Assembly (NCBI GenBank): GCA_964016885.1
Contig: OZ024743.1
Location: 344,782,001-344,846,000, forward strand
DNA length: 64,000 nt
Direction of reading: 5' to 3'
Source of the DNA: Eledone cirrhosa
Lineage: Eukaryota
The notes beneath the pieces are model-generated. The model was given only the letters and a program-made list of their open reading frames with translations. It searched no databases and was not told the DNA's origin. Below, in pieces: positions 24,276-29,797 of this stretch. How positions within the stretch are numbered: the first letter of the stretch is position 1; every line of letters starts with the position of its first letter. Made by a program: the position numbers and the translations under genes.

Positions 24276-26062
24276 ATGGCCGAAGCTTCTTCACCAAAAT
24301 TCGAAGGAGGAAAGGGGAAGATGAACTTACAGCTTCCCCCTGCCACTGTCACAGTAGCAGAGGTCAAGAAGATAGGTCAGCCAGAGGAAGAATTCTCTCC
24401 ACCTGTTAACCGACAACTTGACGTTGCCATGGCAACAACCCAAAGAACCAGCAGCAACAGCAACAACAACAACAATGCGACGGACGAAAACAACACCAAT
24501 AACAATAACAATAACAACAACAAGACCAATAACGGTGACAACATCAACAATGATAACAACAACACCACCAACGACAACAACAACACAAACAAACAAAATT
24601 CTCCTTCGCCGAGACGACAAGGAAAACCCTCGACTATCTGCCAGTAGATATAACAAAAGCGAAGGAGCTACTGGCGGATGCGAAAAAATATATAGTTTTC
24701 GGGGAAAATGGTTCATTCACAATCCATTCCCCCCCGGAACTAAAAAGCCAGAGACTCCTAAACACGGTCATGTTTAGGACAATCTCGAACAAAAGTAAAA
24801 AACCAGCTCAACCATCACAGAGCGAGATAGAGCTGGTTTTAAAAGACGTCATGAAGGACATCACCTTCATTCAGAAGGATAGACTCTACGGGAGTCTATC
24901 TATTCTCATGAAGGACAGGGACACAGCAGTGAAACTGTCCATCAAACCAATCACATCCACCGCATACACCTTCTACCCTACGTACATGGGTAGAAGAACA
25001 CAAAAAATAAAAATCCACACCATCCTGCCGATTATGGACATATGGTGGGTTTTGACAGGTTTTCTGGACCTGGAGGATGACATGCTGGTGTCCATGGGAA
25101 AGGCATCGGGTGACGCGTTCAGTGGAACGAGCCTCGAACTTGTAGTTCAAATGAGGCCCGAAAGGATCGCCCAGATCCCTGAACGCGTCATACTGGATGA
25201 TCTAACCTTCATCAACATTACCGTTGAGGGTAGACGGCCCTCGTGTTACCTCTGCGGAACCAGAGGTCACCTGAGGGCTGTCTGTCCCCAACTTAATAAG
25301 AAAACCCCAATCCTGCCTACACCACCAACAACTGCACAACCAACACAATCACCACAACTACCACTACAAAAACAACCACCACAGCTCAAACCAAAACAAA
25401 ACAATGTCCAACCCATCCCCTCCACTCAAAAAACAAAAACAATTTCCAAAACACCCGTACCGCAAACACAACCCGAAAATATACCCCTCCCCTCCAACGC
25501 GGAAGATGACCCTAGTTCGTCGTCAGACGAGGAGGAGCACTTCCACACAATCAAAAGAAAAAAAAGAAAACACACCTCAGACACACAAATGAAAAAAAAC
25601 CCTCCCCAAAACATAACACTGACACCAACACAAAAGAGCTCACAACAGCAAACAAAAAACACCACACAAAAACAAAAACATGCATACACATACATAAATA
25701 CAAGAAACAAAAAACTGTTAAACATTGTGTACAACAACAATCTAATAAAAACACAAGGGCCTAACTTCACCCAGGCAGGGGATTTTCCCCACCTCAAAAT
25801 GATTAAGGCCCCACAGGACACCTATAAAACTTTAAAAAACAATTTTAAAGAGGACGTGGGTCCCCCCTGCGTCGGGCCCATTAACCGCGTCCTCCTAAAA
25901 AACTATCCCACCCCCTCCCCAAACACCCTCACAACTCCAAGCTCCCCAACCACACAACACACTGATGCCCCCACACTTCCACAAACCACCACCCCACCCA
26001 ACAACCCATCCCCCACCCTAATGGAAATTGTGCAGCCCGATACCCGGGACGCAGAGAGGTAA
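24276..26062 (+). pseudogene. ORF1 of copy A (gag-like, CCHC knuckle), frameshifted near 24600-24740
   Basis: Split ORFs 24276-24647 and 24770-26062 match the intact 594-aa ORF1 of copy C. Confidence 0.9.
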
Positions 26063-26086
26063 GTGCCTTTTCTCTTCACCACCAAC

Positions 26087-29000: not shown

Positions 29001-29524
29001 ACAACTTCCAGAAGTCCCTGGCCTGGCAGTGCTACCGAGGGGCTTTACCCGTTCGAGAAAGGCTCTACAGACACGGGCGCCCGGGTAGGGACCCCGCCAA
29101 AAAGATCTGTCCCAGATGCGTGTGCGACGAGGAAACCGTTGCACACGCATTAGTACACTGCTCGGGCGTAGCCGATCTGTGGGGCTATGTCGAACAACTG
29201 CTGTCAAGGGTGGGACCGATCCGGTTGACCACCGAGTCTATTGTAATGATCAAGCCGCCTCCCCCCTTCAAAGATGAAGCAGAGGCGGTGTTTCTGTGCG
29301 TAATAGCCATGGCGAAAGAGGTTGTATGGTGGACGCGTCTGAAAGGACTGAGGTCGGGCACCTTTCTCTCTGGCCAACAACTGGTCCGTTTCTTCCGATA
29401 TCATTTCGGAAGAAGGATCAGGATGGAGAGAGAGGTGCTGCACCCCAGCCGTTTCTATGAAAGATGGGTGAAAGTGGCGAGAATGGCCCGTGTGAATGGG
29501 CCTTCACTCTACATCAGACTATAG
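26087..29524 (+). CDS. ORF2: APE-like endonuclease, reverse transcriptase and C-terminal zinc knuckle (1145 aa from first ATG)
   Basis: LNARGL, ICE, AAYGP, GDWN, YLDR, SDH (EN); KSPGLDG, FRPITLLN, DQSKAFDRV, RQGCPLS, YADD (RT); CPRC...ETVAHALVHC. Confidence 0.97.
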   Translation: MAMLRVGCLNARGLGSTWKQAMLLNDLRSQRIDVMVICEARISNVRQLAPTFDEFEMHASLCQPGGGGGVVVLLQKHLGLATQMVHLDPEGRLVVLDLGSGKGGAFRLVAAYGPFGSMRPDFFHRLETFLGTSRSLLLVGDWNGILDARWDYVGACPDREGCNSLKGLIGRFDLADRYRLDFPTAPTWTWANRSGSSRSYLDRFLVRIKDKDFLSCPKMRMVGYSDHKLVTCMVNLDRTHRQGPGYWKLNLSLPASRAYRNRISTLVKERLTGAIVNSRWWVSLKREIRVVSIEFSKVLAADRNRKERELIDRVEEAIRSGDVARVLASRTALSQFFDAKHEGCVVRSKIRALGNEGTKAVSWARVTEANSGTKSTIRSLRDLDGRAILEPKQMCEAFQRHFARLFGRGGEPVGNVDFGPYLDGLPRLSDREAKSCEEPISAAEIEDVLSQCGKRKSPGLDGLPYELYLAMPDLFPDLLEAVYCNWQQNGRIPCTVTKGVVTLVRKDENKGDEISNFRPITLLNTELQILAKVLAKRLALVVGNLVGDAQTCAIPSRSIHDNLHLMRYIIERVGNEPGFGGALINLDQSKAFDRVDHGYLDAVLAAAGFGPVFRGWITAMHSSRICSRVKVNGYLSEPFKIARSIRQGCPLSSLLYVLTLEPLLRKLELLQGIPLEPGLRKAVSAYADDVTVMVSTASEIEAVGTLLEEYEKFTGAKLNRDKSIGLQLGTWRGRPMPSDSVVGRWTEGPVKLLGVWFGPDLQVEKNWAEVTNRVFALTQKWASCKLSLKGRAEVANTYIASVIYYRLTVVPCPRETLTKMERALFQFLWKRRAPMVRRSICCQHPSKGGLGMPWLMMRKHALRLRHLYVFLTGQPVWASFVRRTFPRLVSLTELQSWVKQRPRKLGAWHTECAQALTALWQADPVISGDSTATFYRGLVRSRCDDPLGEALDMEEDELASLFGRTFSPGPMDNFQKSLAWQCYRGALPVRERLYRHGRPGRDPAKKICPRCVCDEETVAHALVHCSGVADLWGYVEQLLSRVGPIRLTTESIVMIKPPPPFKDEAEAVFLCVIAMAKEVVWWTRLKGLRSGTFLSGQQLVRFFRYHFGRRIRMEREVLHPSRFYERWVKVARMARVNGPSLYIRL

Positions 29525-29797
29525 GTGAGGAAGATGAAAGACCAAGGGAGCACCCCTTCTCTGTGCTCCTGAGGAGAAGGGTTGCACACTTTTTTCGGGG
29601 GTGTGTGCGACCCCCCCAAGGCGCCTCCTCTCTATTGAGGATTTTGTTAAAAATTTTATTTTTTGTTATATCTTATTTTATTTTTATATTTTGTTATTGC
29701 CTCCTCCTTATTGAGGACGCCTTTTTGTGTAAACTCCCCCCTTTGTGCTTGTCCCACTTTTGATGCCCTAGTGGCAAATAAAAGAAATATATCTATC

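Follow-up and report, generated by a model that had tools for sequence, protein, structure and literature searches.

Long interspersed nuclear elements (LINEs) of the Tx1 clade have a CCHC knuckle in the first open reading frame (ORF1) and a zinc finger at the end of the second (ORF2). The element considered here, copy A of a family termed A, lies in a 64,000-nt stretch of Eledone cirrhosa DNA (OZ024743.1, positions 344,782,001 to 344,846,000; hereafter the window), part of contig C4 of a 3.0-Gb genome from which all families compared below were taken. It resembles Tx1-clade LINEs of the Kibi and Koshi type in possessing two ORFs, an apurinic/apyrimidinic (APE) endonuclease and a reverse transcriptase (RT), and may share with them a C-terminal zinc finger, a CCHC-like ORF1 knuckle and flanks of a fixed microsatellite. 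A target preference, often for microsatellites, is described for the clade (PMC4494074). A preliminary description of this DNA proposed that ORF2 is bracketed like an intron, by a splice donor at the ORF1 stop (D2) and an acceptor at the ORF2 stop. As stated, that claim is unsupported; the donor it identified is real, selected and functional. A second donor-like site (D1) stands in the 5′ untranslated region (5′UTR). At a probability of about one half, D1 and D2 may be docking sites for the U1 small nuclear ribonucleoprotein (snRNP) through which transcription of the unspliced RNA is carried to its full length, and not the start of an ORF2 intron.

Splice donors have been described in several other retroelements. 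In Ty1/copia elements, which carry long terminal repeats (LTRs), a real conserved intron gives rise to a demonstrated Gag-only mRNA (EVD shGAG and Drosophila copia; PMC5580714), whereas no conserved acceptor or internal spliced product was found for this LINE. HIV-1 and foamy virus resemble it in placing a U1 site near poly(A) hexamers; their donors are reported also to make subgenomic RNA by splicing and to guard the LTR poly(A) site (PMC3694450), whereas the hexamers here lie inside ORF1 and are putative poly(A) signals. Human L1 likewise has a conserved, rarely used donor, whose mutation is reported to lower RNA about 5-fold; that donor lies in the 5′UTR, is explained by a RUNX3 site and yields spliced retrocopies (SpIREs) at about 2% (PMC5860796). 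The present element, by contrast, has a pair of donors, and the searches described below found no retrocopy that had been spliced. Penelope-like elements are described as keeping an intron-like 5′UTR unit in their genomic copies, as this element does; they belong to a different RT class and their splicing has been demonstrated (PMC8557442), while the unit described below is known from sequence only. The available text of an octopus repeat survey reports active L1-Tx1 families with no mention of splicing (PMC13282606). Neither paired conserved donors nor an intron spanning ORF2 was found described for Tx1-type LINEs in a literature of mostly titles and abstracts, with few subscription journals.

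The bases of D2 are as the preliminary description gave them. AG/GTAAGT (the slash marks the splice point) overlaps the ORF1 stop in GAG AG/GTAAGT, with GT at 26059-60 and TAA at 26060-62, and the same motif recurs in phase 2 on the minus strand at 9447-9440. The D2 motif was found in nine family types (A, A′, B1, B2, C1, C2, D, D′ and E), where it takes the form AG/GTRAGT except for GTAGGT in one subfamily; the stop variants TAA, TGA and TAG all remain donor-like. In family D, all five copies with an open ORF1 (624-640 aa) read GAA G/GT AAG TAA. Frame and stop are shifted there (phase 1) and the donor motif is kept, so that the motif is conserved independently of the ORF1 stop. As a neutral yardstick, a comparison of five intact ORF2s leaves 81 of 296 four-fold sites without variation, and AGG occurs in all five at 7 of 58 conserved Arg columns. 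Given so few invariant four-fold and AGG columns, drift alone would keep the bases of D2 that coding does not determine about once in 100 cases, a rough product in which the sites are treated as independent. Judged by this yardstick, the conservation of D2 exceeds chance and the donor is under selection. Where donor, acceptor and phase had all been expected to hold in related families, the donor is kept in every family examined; the acceptor and the phase are not.

Evidence for the use of D2 comes from run X4, whose kind is not on record; none of the six runs is listed as RNA. A 535-nt contig, inspected over 30 letters on either side of its join, matches 26029-26058 and departs from the element exactly after 26058. 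The next 30 letters have a single match in the genome, directly after TTAACAG, and a family-A copy with the identical 30 nt stands on the same strand 2,187 nt upstream of that exon. The exon that follows matches RRP36 (E 6e-12), and the join is in frame (phase 2) and skips several acceptor-like sites in between. Exact removal of a 2,187-nt GT..AG gap is best read as splicing, from which X4 is inferred to be RNA. On this one contig, the spliceosome can use D2 when a strong host acceptor follows. All four X4 contigs over 25990-26130 are without an ORF2-skipping or mini-intron join, and an ORF2-skipping join from D2 is not among the 15 joints listed of 140 over the whole element. Contigs lose rare forms, and junctions missing from them are therefore not counted as evidence.

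The RRP36 junction locus (G000:C14:40241067-40238881, minus strand; loci L132-L134) also holds an internally deleted element of about 800 nt at L132 (G000:C14:40240117-40239318), composed of the 5′UTR, two pieces of ORF2 and the 3′UTR. Among the best 40 candidates, its only whole-length match was to itself.

D1 recurs as GTRAGY in otherwise dissimilar 5′UTRs of seven types, where it lies about 30-45 nt from the 5′ end; the families beside A are B1, B2 (GTGAGC), C1, C2, C3, D and E. Together with an acceptor-like site (A1), it delimits a 67-nt unit in family A (24096-24162, GT..AG) consisting of a donor, a branch-like CTGATAAC and a T-rich TAG; similar intron-like 5′UTR units occur in C2 and E. 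An ORF2-only mRNA made by joining D1 to an AG in the spacer between the ORFs was considered and rejected: C2, D and D′ have such an AG, A, B and C1 lack it, and no copy of this kind was found for family A.

Genomic copies of the element are unspliced at both donors wherever they were searched. The searches used exact-match patterns, which copies with a mutated anchor and some exon starts escape. ORF1-only elements are known as HAL1, and the ORF2-less product that had been predicted would resemble them; the genome yielded none from this clade. Copies from which precisely the intron is missing, in the manner of SpIREs or HAL1, numbered 0 against 5,269 unspliced D2 junctions over all families searched and 566 unspliced D1 junctions. 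Within family A, 1,465 genome copies share the ORF1-end junction of copy A in a pattern search, and no exact ORF2-less join was found. Three patterns admitting any departure after the AG gave 58 matches at 57 places, none of them spliced: 56 run into the normal spacer and one is a deletion into ORF2 with no AG. Family B2 yielded 36 variants among 2,374 junctions (35 normal and one deletion without AG; none spliced), and no B2 retrocopy joins D2 to a CAG in its 3′UTR. Spliced forms were likewise absent from family B1 (0 against 41 unspliced junctions), family D (0 of 340) and families C and E (0 against 1,049, searched for the ORF2-stop join only). Where a deletion begins at the donor (L124 and L303), its other end lacks an AG, and it was set aside as an ordinary deletion. 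The 67-nt unit of family A was found in 566 unspliced genomic copies and no spliced one, and none of four D1 variants inspected was spliced inside the element. This unit is a partial control for cis preference, since its removal from the RNA leaves both ORFs in place and the spliced form should be mobile in cis. The RNA that is copied thus appears to be unspliced at both D1 and D2.

The proposed acceptor fared less well than the donor. Its bases were correctly described (TAG at 29522-24, then GTGAGG), as were an alternative CAG upstream (29515-17) and TAG/GTAG in the 3′ patch of copy C (41354-60). By a crude pyrimidine score, site 29524 ranks third of 110 YAG sites downstream of D2. It has 6 T in 18 nt against 11 T at two host acceptors, and codon-shuffled versions of ORF2 contain a mean of 6.3 sites that score as high, so that the acceptor is not clearly more than chance. 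Family B2, which is young (2,374 junction copies, with open ORF2s of 1,139 aa), keeps the donor and ends ORF2 in TAA. No codon is added in A when D2 is joined to the ORF2 stop; D would gain 1, E 27 and B1 42, a comparison to which C2 contributed no row. The suggestion that the join keeps the same phase and restores an identical ORF1 therefore holds for family A and fails elsewhere, with phase 1 in D and longer readings in E and B1. A copia-type element has a conserved donor at the end of its structural ORF, which is found here, and a conserved acceptor giving a defined short ORF, which is not (TAA in B2; 27 and 42 added codons in E and B1). The idea that ORF2 is a conserved intron, the loss of which restores ORF1, is not supported across the families. 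A T-rich run ending in CAG occurs in the B2 3′UTR (L268-L277) and not at the matching place in B1-TAG, A or E.

Under the U1 docking reading, U1 at D1 would support early elongation and cover the A-rich ORF1. U1 at D2 would suppress AATAAA or ATTAAA within about 500 nt upstream, by occlusion of the HIV type, and would renew the protection into ORF2. The element would have no dedicated partner acceptor, and any splicing from D2, with the exonisation of LINE sequence into host genes that it brings, would be incidental. ORF1 is 36-41% A. In families A, A′, B1, B2, C2, D and E, the last 500 nt or so before D2 contain AATAAA or ATTAAA, and there are almost no hexamers in the 1 kb downstream; a strong donor near poly(A) hexamers is thus found, weakly so in C1. 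The HIV-1 donor is reported to silence a poly(A) signal 195 nt upstream, and U1 binding to suppress polyadenylation in foamy virus (PMC3694450). For the copia element EVD, it has been proposed that U1 at the donor prevents unspliced transcripts from terminating early (PMC5580714), and a strong early 5′ splice site is described as blocking Restrictor independently of splicing (PMC12211998).

Several observations weigh against this reading. The upstream hexamers stand at non-homologous positions, are rare in C1 loci and may merely follow from the A content of ORF1, and the ORF2s of A, E and B2 contain no AATAAA or ATTAAA, which leaves little downstream for D2 to protect. Codon shuffles reveal no depletion of acceptor-like sites in ORF2, as avoidance of splicing might predict, nor any of donors or poly(A) hexamers. 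Cis preference alone would also predict that ORF2-less retrocopies are missing, the splice evidence is a single contig from a run of unrecorded kind, and U1 binding at D1 and D2, with its effect on termination, is an inference. Families A, C, D, D′ and E retain TAG/G where ORF2 ends; the join adds only one codon in D despite the different phase of that family, which is suggestive; and B2, without an AG at the stop, has the T-rich CAG in its 3′UTR.

These last three points favour a relaxed copia-like switch, in which D2 would be joined to an acceptor located at the ORF2 stop or farther downstream, yielding a message for ORF1 alone. The position of the acceptor and the final residues could then drift between families, and spliced RNA would not serve as template. 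The splice competence of D2, the Arg-stop produced by the join in A, the place of 29524 in the top three of the YAG sites that follow D2 in A and the reported retention of introns by Penelope-like elements on retrotransposition (PMC8557442) speak for it as well. Yet it is B2, the largest family counted, that has no AG at the stop, E and B1 would gain 27 and 42 extra codons, and the acceptor is weaker than those of the host and common in codon shuffles. ORF2-less retrocopies are absent from A, B1, B2, C/E and D, including any made with the B2 3′UTR CAG, although spliced human L1 RNAs are reported to leave retrocopies (PMC5860796). Such a switch is considered unlikely. Slightly less probable is a division between message and template, whereby RNAs spliced of both the 5′UTR intron and ORF2 would serve as ORF1-only mRNA, only unspliced RNA would be reverse-transcribed, and the acceptor at the ORF2 end would drift.

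The two motifs could also act in the DNA itself, as promoter or factor sites, or be inherited sequence that has no role in RNA. The families do share ancestry (52-79% pairwise four-fold identity), and the 5′UTR donor of human L1, conserved and rarely spliced, is reported to overlap the RUNX3 site (PMC5860796). An exact donor consensus at two positions, despite diverged flanks and the frame shift of family D, and the observed splice use render this distinctly doubtful. More doubtful still is a termination-reinitiation signal for ORF2, formed by the motif and the pyrimidine-rich spacer and like a donor by resemblance only. The motif does stand at the ORF1 stop, 24-41 nt before CAAC-ATG, with a spacer that is 76-86% pyrimidine in all families, and ORF2 of L1 and SART1 is reported to be translated by reinitiation or coupling (PMC5972666). 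However, in family D the stop moved and the 9-mer stayed, variation at +3 and +4 tracks the donor consensus, the motif also occurs in the 5′UTR where no stop exists, and D2 was spliced at the RRP36 locus. A mini-intron from D2 to an AG a few codons into ORF2, which would remove the stop and fuse the ORFs, is largely rejected as highly improbable: an in-frame AG is present at an early ORF2 Arg codon in A, B, C and D, but the gap in A would span 42 nt, the codon is GAG or AAA in subfamilies and CGA in E, and the fused RNA would move in cis, yet searches of A, B2 and D found no fused copies. Read-through of the ORF1 stop into ORF2 is rejected because spacers occur in all three frames.

Features of copy A and related elements in the window
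Feature	Position	Strand	Remarks
D2-type donor in degraded family-B1 copy	9440..9447	-	
Full-length L1-group (Tx1-like) LINE, family A, copy A	24066..29790	+	(TCTA)n flanks; about 5.7 kb
D1, TGA/GTAAGT	24093..24101	+	GT at 24096; about 30 nt from 5′ end
T-rich acceptor-like site A1	24140..24162	+	With D1, a 67-nt intron-like unit
ORF1	24276..26062	+	A-rich, weak CCHC knuckle; AATAAA at 25006 and 25744
Donor D2, GAG/GTAAGT	26056..26064	+	Conserved, splice-competent
Inter-ORF spacer	26063..26086	+	Pyrimidine-rich; ends CAAC-ATG
ORF2, intact	26087..29524	+	1,145 aa; APE endonuclease, RT, zf-RVT
Proposed acceptor	29503..29524	+	Moderate quality; not conserved in B2
3′UTR	29525..29790	+	AATAAA at 29777; (TCTA)n tail
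Head-to-tail copies B, C and partial D	30228..42914	+	Copy A heads the array of four; 97-99% identical

The coding parts of copy A are those of an L1-group LINE, with APE endonuclease and RT in ORF2, a separate ORF1, a 3′UTR, a repeat tail and no LTRs. ORF1 of copy A is frameshifted, leaving 123 aa from the ATG at 24276, a lesion absent from the preliminary description; copy C carries an intact 594-aa ORF1 (36209-37993). The spacer is 24-41 nt long across families, 76-86% pyrimidine, and occurs in all three frames. ORF2 has Pfam matches to Exo_endo_phos (E 7e-08) and RVT_1 (E 5e-26), and its best PDB match is human LINE-1 ORF2p (E 7e-48, residues 7-857). The zinc-finger matches are weak and under the curated cut-off (zf-CCHC in ORF1, E 0.041; zf-RVT at the ORF2 end, E 4e-05). 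The intact ORF2s of families E, B2, D and D′ share 68-77% identity with that of A. Distant relatives are 37-39% identical, and metagenome contigs yielded no DNA context for them; a protein tree left the order of the families unresolved. The element behaves as a probable Tx1-type LINE, an assignment made from its features.

The copies read are flanked at both ends by (TCTA)n in families A and E and by (TTA)n in B (window 24030-24066 and 29790-29890; loci L263-L275), which suggests microsatellite targeting or insertion into the element's own tails. Inside the tandem array, short 3′ fragments or patches of other subfamilies (window 29884-30130 and 41326-41680) point to template switching or recombination of 3′ ends. 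Elsewhere, ten family-D junctions at a spacing of about 5.84 kb form a head-to-tail array like that of the window (G000:C1:423365594-423418107), and L265 holds a family-E ORF1/ORF2 junction with a family-A 5′ end 1.65 kb upstream, a chimeric or nested copy. Within the window, an unrelated RT-like retroelement splits the family-B1 copy (5973-8476, minus strand), and long open frames of up to 772 aa on both strands (51624-53946) are probably a tandem repeat.

A LINE has no introns and must be copied whole, and a strong splice donor ought therefore to be harmful to it; nonetheless, two such donors persist in thousands of young copies from several families. Should they serve as docking sites for U1, a LINE would be using the trick of retroviruses and copia to get past early termination. 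Each sense insertion carries a working donor and can exonise into host genes, as at RRP36. A copia-like use of D2 would instead amount to a regulated ORF1:ORF2 splicing switch in a LINE, and if message and template were divided, such a switch would be combined with Penelope-like intron retention in a true LINE.

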